DNA of 21,258 nt from a virus (IMGVR_UViG_2778261303_000012:1-21258), one strand, 5' to 3'; positions 9,482 through 20,440 are shown, counted from the stretch's first letter. Notes: generated by a model not told the origin, from the sequence alone. A program made the numbers and translations.

Positions 9482-9702
9482 GCAGCACCTCCGAGATGCT
9501 TCATGTTTTTTCCGGAGCGAAAGGCTATAAGCGGCATACTGACGCGGTAACTACGGCCCAGCGGTTCACAAATCACCTTCTGACATTCACGGTCAACCAG
9601 GCTAACACGTAGAACATGCCCTTCAGGTGTGGTGTACCACTGACCCGGACGAGGACAACGGAAAGTCTGATTGGTAAACCGTTTGAAAATATTCCGGATC
9701 AT
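9478..9702 (-). CDS. hypothetical 74-aa protein, translationally coupled between rha and the replication gene
   Basis: ATGA overlaps at both ends (Rha stop / its ATG at 9699..9702; its stop / replication-gene ATG at 9478..9481). Contains a CxxxP...C pattern; no family recognised. Confidence 0.5.
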   Translation of the reverse strand: MIRNIFKRFTNQTFRCPRPGQWYTTPEGHVLRVSLVDRECQKVICEPLGRSYRVSMPLIAFRSGKNMKHLGGAA

Positions 9703-10256
9703 TTGCGCCCCCTTACCTCTGAAGGGTTCAGCAACAAATTTATGAGGCAGGCCAGTGCCGAAGCATCATTAATATAGTCATACAAGCTAACAGCCAGCGG
9801 AGATTCGGCTTTTGCCAACATAGGATAAAGCTGCTGCAGCCAGACCTGATGAATTGATGAAATGTAGGAATAGAGAACGCTGGCGTTATGTGCAACGTCG
9901 CTCAGTACAGAGGGCTTTGAAAGCTGTTTCTCCATCTGGTTAAAGGCATTGATGTATGCCTCTTTGAACTGGGCAGCACGTTTACCCGTGAAACCCATAG
10001 CAAGAAACGCAAAGCCGTCGCGAGTGATTTGATAGCAAGGAAGCTTGCGTGTACCACCGTTCGGTTGATTTACCGAAATAGATGTCTCCGCAAAATTGCG
10101 GGCACAAAACTCAGGGGAACAATCCAGAGTACGGATCTTTTTCAGCACATCGTCGTGACGCTTGGAGAAGAAGTTTGCAACAGCTAAAGAAGTGGTAACG
10201 GCTTGGCCGTTGTCAATGGTGATTTCAGGTTGAGTAAGGGCTGGGATCGTAGCCAT
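9699..10256 (-). CDS. Rha-family phage regulatory protein
   Basis: Start set at ATG 10256 (GGAGG RBS 8 nt upstream), giving 185 aa: MATIPALTQPEITIDNGQAVTTSLAVANFFSKRHDDVLKKIRTL...GTRKLPCYQITRDGFAFLAMGFTGKRAAQFKEAYINAF is the Phage_pRha signature. The 499-aa ORF in the track is a read-through artefact. Confidence 0.8.
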   Translation of the reverse strand: MATIPALTQPEITIDNGQAVTTSLAVANFFSKRHDDVLKKIRTLDCSPEFCARNFAETSISVNQPNGGTRKLPCYQITRDGFAFLAMGFTGKRAAQFKEAYINAFNQMEKQLSKPSVLSDVAHNASVLYSYISSIHQVWLQQLYPMLAKAESPLAVSLYDYINDASALACLINLLLNPSEVRGRK

Positions 10257-10586
10257 GATGGCAGCCTCCGTTGACAGTGAAAAACTTCCACCACCGGAAA
10301 CGCCAATTTCACTGGTGGTGAACTGGACGGGGTTGGCGTAACCGGCGTCAACGGAGACCGGCGCACCTTTCGGTGCCCCCGTCCAGCCCACCATAATCTG
10401 GATGTGAACAAATGCGGACGATAAAAAAGACGCTGGCGCGTCATACATCGCCGTTGACAATTTCAGGACGCCAATCCCGGCACCTGATTTTTCAGGTGCT
10501 GAAGCAGTGTATACTCGAAATAAATCATGATCAATAATGATGCGAGGATGGGGGTTAACCGTTATCTCAAAATAAGGAGATACAAC

Positions 10587-10928
10587 GTGAGATACCAACT
10601 TTTGGCTAACAGCAGCAGAGGTGATGGTTTTTACGATGTAACCATCAGCGATAATAGCGGCAACCTCGAAATAGAATGCACTTGTATGGCTGGTGAAATG
10701 GGTACAATGTGTAAGCACCGTATTGCCGTTATTACAGGAAAATATGGAAATATCATAGATATTGATGATCCTGAAAACGCCGATGCAAAACTGGCAACCG
10801 ACCTGATTGCTAAATATGGAATTACAGAGCAATACCTTGCTCTTGCTAAAGAACTCGAAGACCTGAAAAAGAGGTTCAAGGTTGAAGAAAAGGCTATCAA
10901 ACTGAGAATTAATGCCTTGGCAGGGTAA
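10587..10928 (+). CDS. small SWIM-type zinc-finger protein, antisense moron within the early operon
   Basis: Start at GTG 10587 preceded by AAGGAG with 7-nt spacing; 113 aa. Contains CTCMAGEMGTMCKHRIAV, i.e. CxC-x9-CKHxxAV, the canonical SWIM zinc-finger pattern. Lower GC than flanking genes and opposite orientation. Confidence 0.6.
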   Translation: MRYQLLANSSRGDGFYDVTISDNSGNLEIECTCMAGEMGTMCKHRIAVITGKYGNIIDIDDPENADAKLATDLIAKYGITEQYLALAKELEDLKKRFKVEEKAIKLRINALAG

Positions 10929-10965
10929 GCTCTCAGTTAAAATTTGTTTCATTTGGTTAGCTCTC

Positions 10966-11198
10966 ATCCTTCCCCTTACGGCAGAAGAGTTCAGTAAAGA
11001 ATTGATTAAACCAGCAAGCGCCGCTGCGTCATTGATGCGGTCATAAAGGCAATTCAGGCCCACAGTCAGGTAAAATTCTCTGTGGTTAATTACAGCCAGG
11101 TGATTTAGTAATCTGCATTCATGCCGTAACAACAGATGTTCAGAGACGCAGACCACCAGCTGTTGCGACAAACGGTTATTTGCCGTTAAACTGTTCAT
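10966..11198 (-). other. short ORF / relic resembling the 3' end of rha, translationally coupled to the CII-like gene
   Basis: ATG at 11198 overlaps the CII-like stop (ATGA). Encoded ...LYDRINDAAALAGLINSLLNSSAVRGR parallels the Rha C-terminus ...LYDYINDASALACLINLLLNPSEVRGRK, and the DNA at 10967..11060 is about 70% similar to 9705..9800. The reading frame then runs open across the antisense of the SWIM gene, so its true end is unclear. Confidence 0.35.
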
Positions 11199-11752
11199 GC
11201 GTTAGTTTCTCCACAACTAGAAGCAATCGACGCCACGACGCCCGGAGCTGCACACTCGCGGGCGTTACTCTTTTCTGGAGCGCAGAAGATTTTGTAGACC
11301 AGTGCTGCATGCTCCTGGAGCTTCGAAATTGACAGATACAACTCATCATTAATTGCTGTTTGCTCGTGTAGCTCCACTACCCCATCTTCGATTGCCGAAC
11401 GAATCTGCTTTGAGTAACTCCCGATCTGTTCGATGACTTCCAGCAGGCGCTGGTTTATATCGGCGTTCTCTACTTCCTCAATTTCAGGAAGTGATACAAA
11501 CACCCCACCAGCAGACTGTGCGACAGCATCCGCAATGTGATGAGTACTAGCCGCACGCTGTAAAACCATTGCCCATCCCAACGGAAAAAACTGATCACCA
11601 TCGGCACGAAGGCGGTTGAATAAAGCGTTCTCTGTTACATCCAGCCACTCAGCAGCTTCAGCGTAACCACCTGGCAATGCCGCGATAGTTTTTCTGACAG
11701 CTTTCACGTACCAGTCAGGTTGTTTTTCCACTTTCCAGTGATGCTTACCCAC
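11195..11752 (-). CDS. CII-like / YdaT-type phage regulatory protein
   Basis: 185 aa, GTG start with AGGAGG RBS, overlapping the cro-like gene by 8 nt; position directly after cro and general resemblance to Phage_CP76/YdaT-type proteins (recollection, not verified). Confidence 0.55.
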   Translation of the reverse strand: MGKHHWKVEKQPDWYVKAVRKTIAALPGGYAEAAEWLDVTENALFNRLRADGDQFFPLGWAMVLQRAASTHHIADAVAQSAGGVFVSLPEIEEVENADINQRLLEVIEQIGSYSKQIRSAIEDGVVELHEQTAINDELYLSISKLQEHAALVYKIFCAPEKSNARECAAPGVVASIASSCGETNA

Positions 11753-12005
11753 GGCTTACCTCCTGTTCCTGTGGTTTAAACCCATTCTGGTTTTGGCTAG
11801 ATTGAAAACGTGCCGGATAAAGAATCTGCATTTCGCTGATTTCACCCTTAAAAAAATTGGCCAGACGTTCTGCAAGATCGATAGATGGAATTTGTTCCAG
11901 TCTTTCAATACGACTCAGCGTCGCTGGATTGACCTGAACGCCCGCAGCAACATGCTGCAAAGTAAATCCGTGCGCCTTACGCACATTCCGTAATGGTGAT
12001 TGCAT
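11745..12005 (-). CDS. Cro-like HTH repressor
   Basis: 86 aa, GGAGG RBS 5 nt from the ATG. HTH segment FTLQHVAAGVQVNPATLSRIERLEQIPS; divergent from the cI-like gene across an operator-rich intergenic region. Confidence 0.7.
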   Translation of the reverse strand: MQSPLRNVRKAHGFTLQHVAAGVQVNPATLSRIERLEQIPSIDLAERLANFFKGEISEMQILYPARFQSSQNQNGFKPQEQEVSRG

Positions 12006-12019
12006 ATAACCTCCACATA

Positions 12020-12082
12020 TTGCGTGATGATCATATTATTTCACGCAAATATTTTGCGCAAGTTGATTTGCTTAACACGCAA
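12020..12082. promoter_or_regulatory. OR-like operator/promoter region between cro and cI
   Basis: Palindrome TTGCGTGA-N13-TCACGCAA (12020..12048), self-complementary TTGCGCAA (12054..12061) and TTGC-N7-GCAA site TTGCTTAACACGCAA (12068..12082). The cI ATG at 12103 has no obvious Shine-Dalgarno, so a leaderless PRM-type transcript is possible. Confidence 0.55.
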
Positions 12083-12102
12083 TAAAGAAATGTAATAAAC
12101 GT

Positions 12103-12795
12103 ATGAACATAGGAAATCGAGTCAGACAACTTCGCCAGGCGAAGAACATGAAAATCGCCGATCTCGCTGAAGCAATAGGAGTGGATGCGGCGAATATCTC
12201 ACGCCTGGAAACAGGTAAGCAGAAACAATTCACTGAACAAGCCCTGAGTAATATTGCCAGGAGCTTAGGTGTTGATATAGCTGATCTCTTTACCTCAGAC
12301 TTCAAAAGTAATACTGTATGTAAAAACAGTATTAGTGAGGATGTTGCGCAGGTGAAGGATGTATTCCGTATTGAAATGCTGGATGTCAGTGCCAGTGCGG
12401 GAAATGGCCTTATCCAGGGCGGTGATGTCATTGATGTGATTCATGCCATTGAATACAGAACTGATAATGCTGTATCGATGTTTGCCGGACGGCCAGCCAA
12501 TCACATTAAAGTTATCAACGTTCGTGGGGACAGTATGTGTCCAACCATTGAGCCAGGAGATCTCATCTTCGTTGATGTCAGTATCAATCAGTTTGATGGA
12601 GATGGTATCTATGTATTTGGTTTTGATGATAAAATTTATGTCAAACGACTACAAATGATACCTGACAAACTACTGGTGATTTCTGATAACCAGATTTACC
12701 GTGAATGGGGAATTACCAGCGAAAATGAACACCGGTTTATGGTCTTTGGAAAGGTCTTAATCAGCCAGTCACAAACCCTTAAGCGACACAATTAA
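12103..12795 (+). CDS. CI-type prophage repressor (HTH_XRE + S24 LexA-like autopeptidase)
   Basis: 230 aa. N-terminal HTH (RVRQLRQAKNMKIADLAEAIGVDAANISRLETGKQ); C-terminal S24 fold with catalytic Ser in VRGDSMCPTIEPGD and Lys in YVKRL; candidate Ala-Gly cleavage site in SASAGNG. Confidence 0.85.
   Translation: MNIGNRVRQLRQAKNMKIADLAEAIGVDAANISRLETGKQKQFTEQALSNIARSLGVDIADLFTSDFKSNTVCKNSISEDVAQVKDVFRIEMLDVSASAGNGLIQGGDVIDVIHAIEYRTDNAVSMFAGRPANHIKVINVRGDSMCPTIEPGDLIFVDVSINQFDGDGIYVFGFDDKIYVKRLQMIPDKLLVISDNQIYREWGITSENEHRFMVFGKVLISQSQTLKRHN
12309..12334. promoter_or_regulatory. LexA-box-like palindrome inside the cI coding sequence
   Basis: TAATACTGT-ATGTAAAA-ACAGTATTA: perfect 9-bp inverted arms with CTGT-N8-ACAG geometry; the core TACTGTATGTAAAAACAGTA matches the E. 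coli SOS box consensus TACTGTATATATATACAGTA at 16 of 20 positions. Confidence 0.45.
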
Positions 12796-12815: not shown

Positions 12816-12836
12816 AGCCACCCGAAGGTGGCTTTT
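12816..12836 (+). terminator. rho-independent terminator downstream of cI
   Basis: AGCCACC-cgaa-GGTGGCT hairpin followed by TTTT, 20 nt after the cI stop. Confidence 0.65.
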
Positions 12837-12850
12837 CATCACCCATCAAA

Positions 12851-12902
12851 TTGCATATGTCGCAACAAAACACTTGCATAATACGCAACTTCATTTTATC
12901 TT
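12851..12902 (+). promoter_or_regulatory. OL-like operators and candidate pL promoter
   Basis: Two TTGC-N7-GCAA sites (TTGCATATGTCGCAA 12851..12865; TTGCATAATACGCAA 12874..12888) matching the site at 12068..12082. Tentative -35 TTGCAT (12874) and -10 TATCTT (12897) with 17-nt spacing. Confidence 0.4.
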
Positions 12903-13313
12903 TCTTTCCAGACCAACAAACAAGGTACTAACAAAATTTGGTTGTAACACGGCGTATGGCACATGCGTCGTTAGCGGTCTGGGGACGTTAAAGGGGACAA
13001 TCCACTCCTTGCTCGAGCAAACAAACCAGGTAGCCGGAATGTGCAAGTCAATGATGATGCTGATAAGACGCCTAACCAGCGTGGCGATTCGGTTTGACGC
13101 CTGGGAAGAGACCAGGGTGCAACGATGAGGGCATTTATGGAGCCGCGACAAAGTGTGGTGCCATAACTGGCTAAGTGCTCTCAGCGTTGTGGTAATCCGC
13201 GAAATGGCGCGGCGGTAAGTATGGCGGGGTTATCCTTACCCCATTAGTGGCACCGGGTTGTCAGGTTGACCATACGCTTAAGTGACAACCCCACCACAAC
13301 AGCCACTGCTTTG

Positions 13314-18675: not shown

Positions 18676-18704
18676 ATAACCCGTGTATATACGGGTTATT
18701 TTTC
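18676..18704 (+). terminator. rho-independent terminator after the excisionase-like gene
   Basis: AACCCGT-gtatat-ACGGGTT hairpin followed by ATTTTTC; overlaps the stop codon of the convergent membrane-protein gene. Confidence 0.55.
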
Positions 18705-19244
18705 TTTATCGCCATCTTTTCTAGATTTGAACAATCCACTAACAACGAAGCCAACCAAACCAACAATACTAATTGTACTTGTTCCCAGTAATGCAACGAT
18801 TGCTTCAACTGGCGGCTTTCCTTCATGAGCAATAAGAAATGATACAAACATTCCGGCTACAAATAAGCACCAACACGACATAAACCAAACCGTGAATGAG
18901 GCCATTTTTGTCCGAAGCTCATTGTCTATTTCTTTACCAGTTGCGTCAGCTATCTTATCCCGTACTTGTGACTTGAGCATATCAAGCTGAGCTTGAAGAC
19001 TGTCCATTCTGTTCTGCTGCATAAACTCATGCAATGCACCAGTATTAGAACCAAACTCTTCTGCCTCCAGAATAGCCTTATTTTCTGAAGAAGAATCATC
19101 ATCGCGCTCATGATTAGACGGCTCAAATGCGGATTCAAAAGCCTGCTCTTGGCTGTCAGTAGAGTTTAAGGATGCTTCAGAGCGACCATTTTCAACACCT
19201 GCGGCCGCTCCGATCAGTTTATAGATATCTGAATTATGAGACAT
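18696..19244 (-). CDS. membrane protein with acidic N-terminal region, coiled coil and C-terminal two-TM hairpin (candidate toxin/effector)
   Basis: 182 aa. N-terminal about 60 residues acidic and low complexity, predicted coiled coil (LQAQLDMLKSQVRDKIADATGKEIDNELRTK), then two hydrophobic helices (FTVWFMSCWCLFVAGMFVSFLIA; AIVALLGTSTISIVGLVGFVVSGLF) and a basic tail. Starts 22 nt after the Panacea-domain gene. Confidence 0.6.
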   Translation of the reverse strand: MSHNSDIYKLIGAAAGVENGRSEASLNSTDSQEQAFESAFEPSNHERDDDSSSENKAILEAEEFGSNTGALHEFMQQNRMDSLQAQLDMLKSQVRDKIADATGKEIDNELRTKMASFTVWFMSCWCLFVAGMFVSFLIAHEGKPPVEAIVALLGTSTISIVGLVGFVVSGLFKSRKDGDKEK

Positions 19245-19266: not shown

Positions 19267-19740
19267 TCAGAGGCCCTGACATTGCTGTCGGTTATTCAAT
19301 AAATCATGATAATAAGCCTTGATCGCATCATTTGAGATGATCGACGAGCCAATACCATTATAAGCTTGTGACCAAGGCGTACCTGGCATATGAGTTAGAG
19401 TTGATAACTCAATTCCATTTTTCGAGCCGTAAAACTTATAAACAGCCCCTATAATGCTCTCTGCTTGCGGATCCATAGTAACGATGCCACCAAAAGGAGC
19501 TACTGCTACATTCGTAACAGGTTTATTCCCATAGTCTTTGAAAGCATCGTACATTCCAGGAATAACTGGACCGTACTTCCACGCGGAGACACATTCATTG
19601 AGCAAAGGCTTACCTGTTAATGCTAAATAGTAACCATGGGCAATATAAGTAAGCTTCTGAAGTTGCATGTGGGTCAGAGGATTATGATGTTGGTTTCCCA
19701 ACGTTATGAATTTATTGGCTATTTGTACCGGACTGTACAT
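19267..19740 (-). CDS. Panacea-domain (DUF4065) protein, PanA/SocA-like antitoxin candidate
   Basis: Start at ATG 19740 with AGGAGG RBS, 157 aa: MYSPVQIANKFI....LTHMQLQKLTYIAHGYYLALTGKPLLNECVSAWKYGPVIPGMYDAFKDYG matches the DUF4065/Panacea signature (...KLQKLLYYAQG..LA..G.PLF.E...AW..GPV.P..Y) as recalled. Confidence 0.7.
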   Translation of the reverse strand: MYSPVQIANKFITLGNQHHNPLTHMQLQKLTYIAHGYYLALTGKPLLNECVSAWKYGPVIPGMYDAFKDYGNKPVTNVAVAPFGGIVTMDPQAESIIGAVYKFYGSKNGIELSTLTHMPGTPWSQAYNGIGSSIISNDAIKAYYHDLLNNRQQCQGL

Positions 19741-20440
19741 AACCACCCTCCTCATTACACTGAATGTGCAAACAGTATCATCACTGTTATCTCAACCTAA
19801 CACGAACAAAAAAGTTTTGGAAGATTGCAAGAGCAATTCACTGTGTTTATAACCAGCAAATGACTGTACATATACACAGGTTACAAATTGGTGGCGAATT
19901 ATACCTGCAGAAGTTGCGATGTCAACAAAGCGACCATCACAGTGTTTTGCATCTCACACTGTTATGACAAAAAATCTTTTGATAGGTTCCCAATAGGCTC
20001 CCACAAAACACATAACCAATTGTTTTTCAAAAACGATACATCCTATCGAGCATTGGTGCAACGCTAAACCGACCACTCCAGTGAACGTCAGTTTTTTCAG
20101 GCATTGCGCTGGTTTGGTTGATTTTTTGCATTTCAGAATTACCGTGCATTTTCAAATGTAGAGATTATTTTATCGATATATCATGGGGTTATGTTATTCA
20201 GCATCACTGTTCAGGAGGCTCAATAACGGGGTACTATACCATAACAACAGGAAGCGCCTGTCTCATTGCAAAAGAAAATTGAGATCCTCTCAAGGCATGA
20301 AGCTCTCACGAAGTGATGGAAATAATCTTATTAGCCGTTAGCTTTGTTAAGGCCAATGATAAACAATCCAGGTTCGACGATAAATAAAAATCACACATTA
20401 AACTCCGGTGATATCTCTCCCTGCTAATAGCACTGATAGA

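Follow-up and report, generated by a model that had tools for sequence, protein, structure and literature searches.

A conserved LexA operator inside a phage cI repressor gene, and a possible SOS-gated gene within that gene

This analysis concerns a 21,258-nucleotide stretch of viral DNA (IMGVR_UViG_2778261303_000012:1-21258), referred to here as the window, and in particular its cI repressor gene, whose coding sequence contains a predicted LexA operator, or SOS box. The encoded protein of 230 amino acids (aa) has a helix-turn-helix (HTH) domain at its N-terminus and a Peptidase_S24 domain at its C-terminus. It also has an Ala99-Gly100 cleavage site and the dyad of Ser144 (in the motif GDSM) and Lys181, all conserved in the alignment of its homologues, and with these features it belongs among the self-cleaving repressors of the LexA/CI type. 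A cro-like gene diverges from cI, and the PRM-like promoter in front of cI, read from the sequence and by analogy with lambda, stops 7 nt short of an ATG that has no Shine-Dalgarno (SD) sequence. On the same analogy with lambda PRM, the full-length cI mRNA is probably leaderless, starting at the A of the ATG. The positions of these and the other features are collected in Table 1.

Table 1. Positions of the features discussed, counted from the first nucleotide of the window
Feature	Position	Strand	Remark
cI repressor gene, 230 aa	12103-12795	+	HTH (Pfam, residues 3-64) and Peptidase_S24 (residues 104-218)
cro-like HTH gene, divergent from cI	11745-12005	-	
PRM-like promoter, TTGCTT-17-TGTAAT	12068-12096	+	Read from the sequence; analogy with lambda PRM
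Perfect inverted repeat, 26 bp	12309-12334	n/a	9-bp arms, 8-bp spacer, CTGT-N8-ACAG core
LexA operator (predicted), 20 bp	12312-12331	n/a	Heterology index about 3.1
-35-like hexamer TTTACC (putative)	12289-12294	+	Codons Phe63-Thr64; 17-bp spacer to the -10
-10-like hexamer TACTGT (putative)	12312-12317	+	First six bases of the box; transcription start predicted at about 12323-12325
Upstream arm of predicted RNA stem	12284-12296	+	Confined to full-length cI mRNA; partner of the GUG84 region
Downstream arm of predicted RNA stem	12347-12361	+	Covers the internal GUG start
SD-like GAGGA	12337-12341	+	10 nt ahead of the internal GTG; anti-SD duplex -6.3 kcal/mol
Candidate nested in-frame open reading frame, 147 aa	12352-12795	+	From GTG (Val84); based on SD and start, and on gene-caller choices
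Intrinsic-terminator-like hairpin, AGCCACC-cgaa-GGTGGCT-TTTT	12816-12838	+	After cI; the SfII annotation has a terminator here too
LexA_DNA_bind-only protein, 108 aa	7196-7522	-	Between dam and rusA; no S24 domain
C4 antisense RNA and isrK	10311-10398, 10423-10499	-	Rfam
SWIM zinc-finger open reading frame	10527-10928	+	Opposite the antirepressor module
SocA/Panacea gene and membrane-type open reading frame	19267-19755, 18696-19244	-	Next to the box cluster at 19758-19881

A sequence-only reading that preceded this work had described a LexA box with perfect 9-bp arms and CTGT-N8-ACAG spacing in the linker-coding part of cI, and this description holds: the inverted repeat TAATACTGT-ATGTAAAA-ACAGTATTA occupies codons 69-77, between the two domains delimited by Pfam. 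Its central 20 bp, TACTGTATGTAAAAACAGTA, agree with the E. coli consensus TACTGTATATATATACAGTA at 17 of 20 positions, one more than that reading had counted, and are a single base away from the umuDC/sbmC operator TACTGTATATAAAAACAGTA, the exact sequence of which is found in the variants of the box from SfII, Citrobacter, and Klebsiella. The box was scored by its heterology index (HI) on a matrix of 27 E. coli LexA boxes, 16 of which agree with Table 4 of PMC3009722. On this matrix, which is our own and not the original one of Lewis et al., the HI of 3.1 falls within the range of known sites (2.1-11.7), third after dinD (2.1) and umuDC (2.15), whereas recA scores less well (4.7). At the base composition of the window, a site with HI ≤ 3.1 has a probability of 1.8e-9 per position, which amounts to 3.8e-5 such sites per window; among 3000 shuffles none approached HI 3.1, and at the 0.1% quantile none lay under 6.5. 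Judged from its sequence, the 20-bp site is very probably a functional LexA operator.

Homologues of cI were gathered from one-genome-per-species contigs, viral contigs, and metagenomes, which yielded about 139 distinct coding sequences, grouped into 28 clusters (<90% aa identity). Among the genera covered are Escherichia, Shigella, Salmonella (ST64B, Fels-1), Citrobacter, Klebsiella, Pantoea, Serratia, Proteus, and Cronobacter. The immunity region of the window is 96-98% identical in mEp460, PhiR63_1, 1720a-02, phiSTEC1575-Stx2k, Stx2a_1447, and Stx2a_WGPS2, 91% identical in Shigella phage SfII, and 72% identical in phage Eeyore, and this type of cI is common, with 1040 carriers among 5426 complete E. 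coli genomes (about 19%). More distant members include Sb38 of ST64B (83% identity), FsoR of Fels-1 (51%), and the repressor of Cronobacter ENT47670 (50%). A LexA box (HI 1.0-8.2) stands at the equivalent codon position in 26 of the 28 clusters, generally at nt 209 of the coding sequence and at nt 206 in the Proteus lineage; Fels-1 and ENT47670 have it as well, at nt 212 and 206. The linker is hypervariable around the box, with insertions and deletions solely downstream of it, and no locus has a second strong box within 2.5 kb on either side of cI.

The pattern of substitutions within the box indicates what is being conserved, and the two computational checks that the sequence-only reading had proposed, HI scoring and conservation at synonymous positions, both favor the box. 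Thr71 is encoded by ACT and Ser76 by AGT in all 26 clusters, although six codons are possible for serine, and Val72 is GTA in 24 clusters and GTT in two. The intervening residues vary (Y/C/F/H at 73, K/I/N/E/L at 74, and N/H/Y/D/S/T/P at 75), and despite the seven amino acids encoded by codon 75, its third base is invariably C, the C of CAG. In SfII the change of Cys73 to Tyr yields the exact umuDC box. When identity of synonymous codons was calculated along the gene, the top ten 5-codon windows all overlapped the box, with observed/expected ratios of 2.4-3.0 against a gene median of 1.2. The constraint on the box acts on the DNA and not on the protein.

The first bases of the box may also serve as the -10 hexamer of a sigma-70 promoter reading along cI, with a -35-like hexamer at a fixed distance upstream. 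On a crude sigma-70 matrix of consensus frequencies, the arrangement TTTACN-17-TACTGT ranks between 1 and 4 among about 660 positions of the + strand in most clusters (median rank 2), and on the - strand even the best of 18 offsets (median rank 7.5) shows no consistent hexamers or position. Only in the two lineages with CACTGT does a central TATAAT outscore the TACTGT arrangement. We consider it likely, on this comparison of sequences, that the box gates an intragenic promoter on the cI strand. Layouts like that of recA (flanking -35 and -10, a central -10 with an upstream -35, or a promoter on the - strand) were also considered, and none is conserved.

Downstream of the box, the SD-like GAGGA and the GTG of Val84 open a candidate nested reading frame that retains Ala99-Gly100, Ser144, Lys181, and the S24/dimerization domain and lacks the HTH. 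An in-frame GTG or ATG with an SD is found 20-38 nt past the box in 23 of the 26 clusters (codons 84-89); the SD-like motifs (GAGGG, GGAG, or AGGAG) lie 5-10 nt before the start and form duplexes of ≤ -5.2 kcal/mol with the 16S anti-SD, and the background of such pairs across the gene is 0.9% of codons. In the alignment, 11 of 14 non-redundant sequences have start and SD at the column of Val87, and all 14 have them within three codons of it. At the Val codon of a V(F/Y)R motif, 18 clusters have GTG and two have ATG, a change of Val to Met, and in the Escherichia coli/Shigella/Citrobacter group this codon is GTA, with the SD (GAGGA or GAGGG) and a GTG three codons upstream, at Val84. This joint movement of SD and GTG by three codons argues for a functional SD-start pair. 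Met92, the other internal start considered, has no SD and is not conserved.

The internal start and the box also disappear together. Start and SD are absent in the box-less relatives of the same family in Dryocola, Phaseolibacter, and Yersinia phage 30.14, and in the box-less repressor of Klebsiella RCIP0114, which has a homologous C-terminal domain and a different N-terminal domain. The more remote box-less outgroups are mostly without the pair, with borderline in-frame cases in Mannheimia PHL101 (ATG87, -6.0 kcal/mol) and BTP1 (ATG82, -5.5 kcal/mol). In public records, gene callers (the tool is not stated) chose GTG84 as the start of a 147-aa protein where the 5' part of the gene is missing (P0001), and GTG88 as the start of a 144-aa protein even for an intact gene (P0113); these choices reflect the strength of the motif and not expression. 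Judged from these features, translation of the 147-aa isoform is on balance probable, and the predicted protein has weak similarity to the "UmuD-like" families of PHROG. Stand-alone genes for the C-terminal domain were also sought: the short proteins in the databases are gene-caller choices on intact or cut genes, and RCIP0114 is a full repressor.

A separate observation concerns the box-less cI of Dryocola clanedunensis H11S18, which carries a degenerate remnant, CGCTGTGCAAAAGCACAGCG, at nt 209, with CTGT-N8-ACAG kept and an HI of 14. The SD and GTG downstream of this remnant are gone, and it looks like a whole unit of box, SD, and start in decay.

Complementarity in the RNA suggests that the internal start would be treated differently on transcripts of different length. 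The segment 12270-12372 folds with a minimum free energy of -26.4 kcal/mol (z -2.4), the two arms of Table 1 being paired, and RNA from 12323 onward has no significant structure (z 0). Across the clusters, the 32 nt located 5' of the box and their cognate SD/start segment pair with a mean of -11.8 kcal/mol, against -9.1 for non-cognate pairs, and the cognate mean was reached in 0 of 20,000 permutations; the strongest examples reach -24 kcal/mol (L010). The effect is gone when either arm is reversed or when the next 32 nt upstream are used. The support that this comparison of cognate and non-cognate duplexes gives is statistical and not that of column-wise covariation. If the model is right, the upstream arm would mask the ribosome site in the full-length mRNA only.

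Taken together, these features lead us to propose, with a probability of roughly 0.4, that members of this CI family carry an SOS-gated gene within a gene, in which a LexA operator, a promoter, and a masked ribosome site would control a UmuD-like isoform that poisons or cleaves CI. The quality of the operator, its conservation at the DNA level, and its co-occurrence with the in-frame SD and start and with the cognate RNA complementarity are shown by the sequences; what we infer is that the promoter is active, that the isoform is translated, and which way it acts on CI. Intact LexA on the box would shut the intragenic sigma-70 promoter, leaving the full-length mRNA as the sole cI transcript, and on this long mRNA the GAGGA and the GUG, paired with the upstream arm, would be little used. 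Under strong SOS conditions, LexA would be cleaved and a short mRNA starting at about 12324 would lack the masking arm and expose GAGGA-N10-GUG. Translation from GUG84 would then give a 147-aa head-less CI, consisting of the cleavage-site loop and the S24/dimerization domain. The hairpin behind cI would terminate the long and the short transcripts alike.

The isoform would pair with full-length CI in mixed dimers or else cleave it in trans, and would in this way tune, and most likely speed, the loss of repression, as a LexA-controlled antirepressor nested in the repressor gene. That it binds and inactivates CI is suggested by the shared dimerization domain. Kim and Little (1993, cited in PMC8951638) reportedly found that a C-terminal domain on its own can act in trans to cleave full-length molecules; as LexA/CI repressors also dimerize via the S24 domain, the isoform should poison or cleave CI. 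Because the operator is tight (HI 2-5), the isoform would be a late SOS function. Under the gene-within-gene proposal, the prophage would sense RecA* through self-cleavage of CI and the loss of LexA through the isoform. We regard the whole chain of steps, including the effect on CI inactivation, as about evenly balanced, and hold acceleration to be the likelier direction of the effect than braking.

Several observations weigh against this proposal, and the most important of them comes from Fels-1, in which a non-cleavable lexA3 allele does not block induction by mitomycin C (Lemire et al. 2011, PMC3121763). As Fels-1 is induced despite lexA3, the LexA-gated element is dispensable for induction, and its role would be modulatory or accessory; by analogy with 434 Hex, discussed below, its effect could even be protective, as a RecA* decoy. 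In the same study, C-terminally tagged FsoR, the Fels-1 homologue, gives "cleavage products" after mitomycin C. With regard to the promoter, the -35 is weak (4/6), is largely set by the Phe-Thr codons, and shows no drift to consensus, and the -10 matches only 3/6 positions; TTTACC-17-TACTGT is not listed by a consensus scan requiring at least 4/6 per hexamer. Given this weak, coding-dictated -35 and the outcome of the strict scan, the promoter is putative. As for the internal start, 3 of the 26 clusters have none at codons 84-89 and instead have GTG96 behind GAGGT, and selection on RNA structure, not on ribosome binding, could in principle maintain the purine run that resembles an SD. The RNA stem, in turn, is stronger than in shuffles (z < -1) in just 12 of the 26 clusters, and RNAalifold on the 26 linker regions recovers only the palindrome of the box and no common outer helix, because the register of pairing varies among lineages.

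Expression data are available for ST64B (PMC7067206). The paper reports expression of the ST64B lytic genes under peroxide and NO shock, and in its Table S5, read here without the condition labels of the columns, the cI mRNA is level or up where cro and the genes of the cII region rise. This pattern is compatible with the mechanism but proves nothing.

Among the other explanations, the one that fares best keeps the LexA-gated promoter and reverses the direction: the isoform, or the RNA, would act as a brake that competes for RecA* or stabilizes CI and buffers the prophage against transient SOS. The anatomy of box, start, promoter, and RNA is equally compatible with it, and so is the induction of the Fels-1 homologue without LexA cleavage (PMC3121763). 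It also has a precedent in 434 Hex (PMC3564112), where the gene of a CI-type repressor encodes an additional product that modulates RecA-dependent inactivation by preventing RecA-mediated cleavage of the repressor. The Hex reading frame, however, partially overlaps the repressor gene and lies on the same PRM mRNA, and its product protects the repressor (PMC3564112); unlike the cI box here, it involves no LexA operator. Moreover, from what is generally known of CI/LexA dimerization, a dimer interface without a DNA-binding head is expected to poison dimers; RecA* is seldom limiting, and a very tight operator of the kind found at late SOS genes suits commitment over buffering. For these reasons, a brake appears unlikely.

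A second possibility dispenses with promoter and isoform: LexA bound within cI would be a roadblock that attenuates transcription from PRM or PRE, and the cI mRNA would rise after LexA cleavage. The sequence-only reading had suggested such a block or attenuation, and a strong operator does sit within a transcribed gene; the ST64B cI mRNA that does not fall as the cro and cII-region genes rise also points this way, weakly, as the columns were read without their condition labels (PMC7067206). On the other hand, a roadblock leaves unexplained the companions of the box, namely the in-frame SD and start, their joint absence with the box, the fixed 17-bp distance to TTTACN, and the RNA complementarity. 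It would also give non-stop truncated mRNAs in every lysogen, and a weaker PRM would be cheaper. This explanation is therefore not the best fit, and we rate it as improbable.

Third, as the sequence-only reading had also suggested, the box might be the target of the prophage's own 108-aa LexA-DNA-binding-domain-only protein, which would bind it during lytic growth. The protein is 42% identical to residues 3-86 of E. coli LexA, keeps the recognition helix S-x-N-A-A-x-E-H-L, and occurs in all listed E. coli and Shigella phages with this cI. It is found equally, however, in phages with unrelated cI genes (cdtI, 2H10, SfV, SfIV, and Stx2c phages), and it is not among the matches listed (best 60 of 61) for Eeyore, whose cI has the box; in addition, the box is conserved in lineages of Pantoea, Serratia, Proteus, Cronobacter, and Fels-1 that are remote from the SfV-like dam-rusA module. 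Since the gene accompanies many unrelated cI genes and is not among the listed Eeyore matches, it is not a dedicated partner of the box, and this explanation is very improbable, even though the protein may bind this and every other SOS box. The last explanation, a chance palindrome or a conserved protein motif (T-V-Y/C-K-N-S) in the linker, is refuted: Thr-Val and Ser are conserved as amino acids, but residues 73-75 vary while the LexA-critical bases are fixed, codon choice is held fixed where degeneracy is 4- and 6-fold, under the strongest synonymous constraint of the gene, and chance, which the sequence-only reading had kept as a caveat, is ruled out because of the HI score, with its 3.8e-5 expected occurrences, and the conservation at synonymous positions across more than ten genera.

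The 108-aa protein is also encoded by more than 50 phages that differ in their immunity regions. It may act as an uncleavable mimic of LexA, restoring repression at SOS boxes in lytic growth.

The proposed gene within a gene has partial counterparts in known systems. In phage 186 (Tum) and the Gifsy prophages (GfoA, GftA, and GfhA; PMC3121763), a prophage SOS box likewise gates a small protein that appears only once LexA is cleaved and acts on the repressor, but there the antirepressor is a separate gene with an intergenic LexA box, whereas here the candidate is an in-frame, N-terminally truncated isoform, and the box lies in the coding sequence. Unlike the Tum/Gifsy pattern, the repressor here is self-cleaving, and induction of Gifsy needs LexA cleavage, whereas that of the Fels-1 homologue does not (PMC3121763). 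The element thus lacks two defining features of the Tum/Gifsy systems, the separate gene and, judging by analogy with the Fels-1 homologue, the requirement for LexA cleavage.

UmuD, which is LexA-repressed, consists of S24 only, and is processed by RecA*, shares with the predicted isoform a short N-terminal arm with a cleavage site, the S24 fold, and an operator that is identical or nearly so to that of umuDC. It differs in that the isoform has no umuC partner, carries the sequence of a CI C-terminal domain, and is expected to act on CI and not on a polymerase. Nested in-frame isoforms are themselves familiar from the Tn5 transposase and its inhibitor, from sieB/esc of lambda and P22, and from the repressor gene c of phiC31 with its three products, where an internal start, sometimes with its own promoter, yields a truncated protein that retains the oligomerization part. 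None of these is known to be under a LexA operator embedded in the coding sequence, or to combine one with an mRNA-specific masking of the internal ribosome site.

Host LexA also binds phage DNA and couples transcription to SOS at PrstA of CTXphi and at P1 of GIL01, the latter with gp7 (PMC4551915), but these operators are in intergenic promoters of lytic or replication genes, and the present one is inside the repressor open reading frame. Literature searches on SOS boxes within cI genes, on intragenic promoters, and on truncated isoforms of the repressor found no report of such an arrangement. A paper on the small RNA svsR (PMC12803456), which concerns the 3' end of a cI gene, contains no data on transcription start sites or LexA, and a remark on "Clade III CI without HTH" (PMC8951638) could not be linked to this cI family. 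As a possible analogue in K-12, cohE/ymfK of e14 was set aside, as the protein is unrelated in sequence and there is no LexA box.

The induction of prophages by DNA damage is usually put down to one of two routes, self-cleavage of the repressor, as in lambda, or a LexA-controlled antirepressor, as in 186 and Gifsy, and this cI family appears to unite both, with one gene whose coding sequence would double as operator and promoter. The family is found in Stx2a-converting phages, in serotype-converting phages of Shigella (SfII), in mEp460, and in Salmonella prophages (ST64B, Fels-1), and the element could set induction thresholds relevant to toxin release and to the phage burst caused by antibiotics. 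It would also be an example of dual-coding constraint, of an intragenic SOS promoter, and of the isoform-specific masking of a ribosome site.

Beyond the terminator of cI lie about 400 bp (12840-13260) without a convincing open reading frame, with operator-like TTGC..GCAA repeats at 12846-12890 and a 70-bp segment (12930-13000) shared, at 99-100% identity, with phages whose cI genes are unrelated (cdtI, 2H10, Ayreon, and Stx2c phages). The matching position of ST64B holds a noncoding RNA induced by DNA damage, STnc1310 (PMC7067206); considered as an internal cI transcript, it was rejected, as it maps downstream of cI.

On the other side of cI, the C4 and isrK RNA genes stand directly upstream of an Ash/Rha-type antirepressor open reading frame (9699 to about 10300, - strand), and the region 9699-10499 corresponds to an antirepressor module in the early right operon similar to immI of P1 and to IsrK-AnrP of Gifsy-1. 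A mechanically predicted open reading frame of 499 aa (9699-11198) crosses the C4/isrK genes, and its N-terminal part is probably not real.

Further LexA-like boxes occur near one edge of the prophage, at 19758, 19839, and 19862 (HI 8.6, 7.0, and 8.3; together spanning 19758-19881), where shuffles give an expectation of 0.027 sites with HI ≤ 9. They cluster in the promoter region of a gene with a SocA/Panacea antitoxin domain, which is followed by the 182-aa membrane-type open reading frame, and the segment 18696-19881 is, from its gene content, a candidate SOS-controlled toxin-antitoxin or abortive-infection module.

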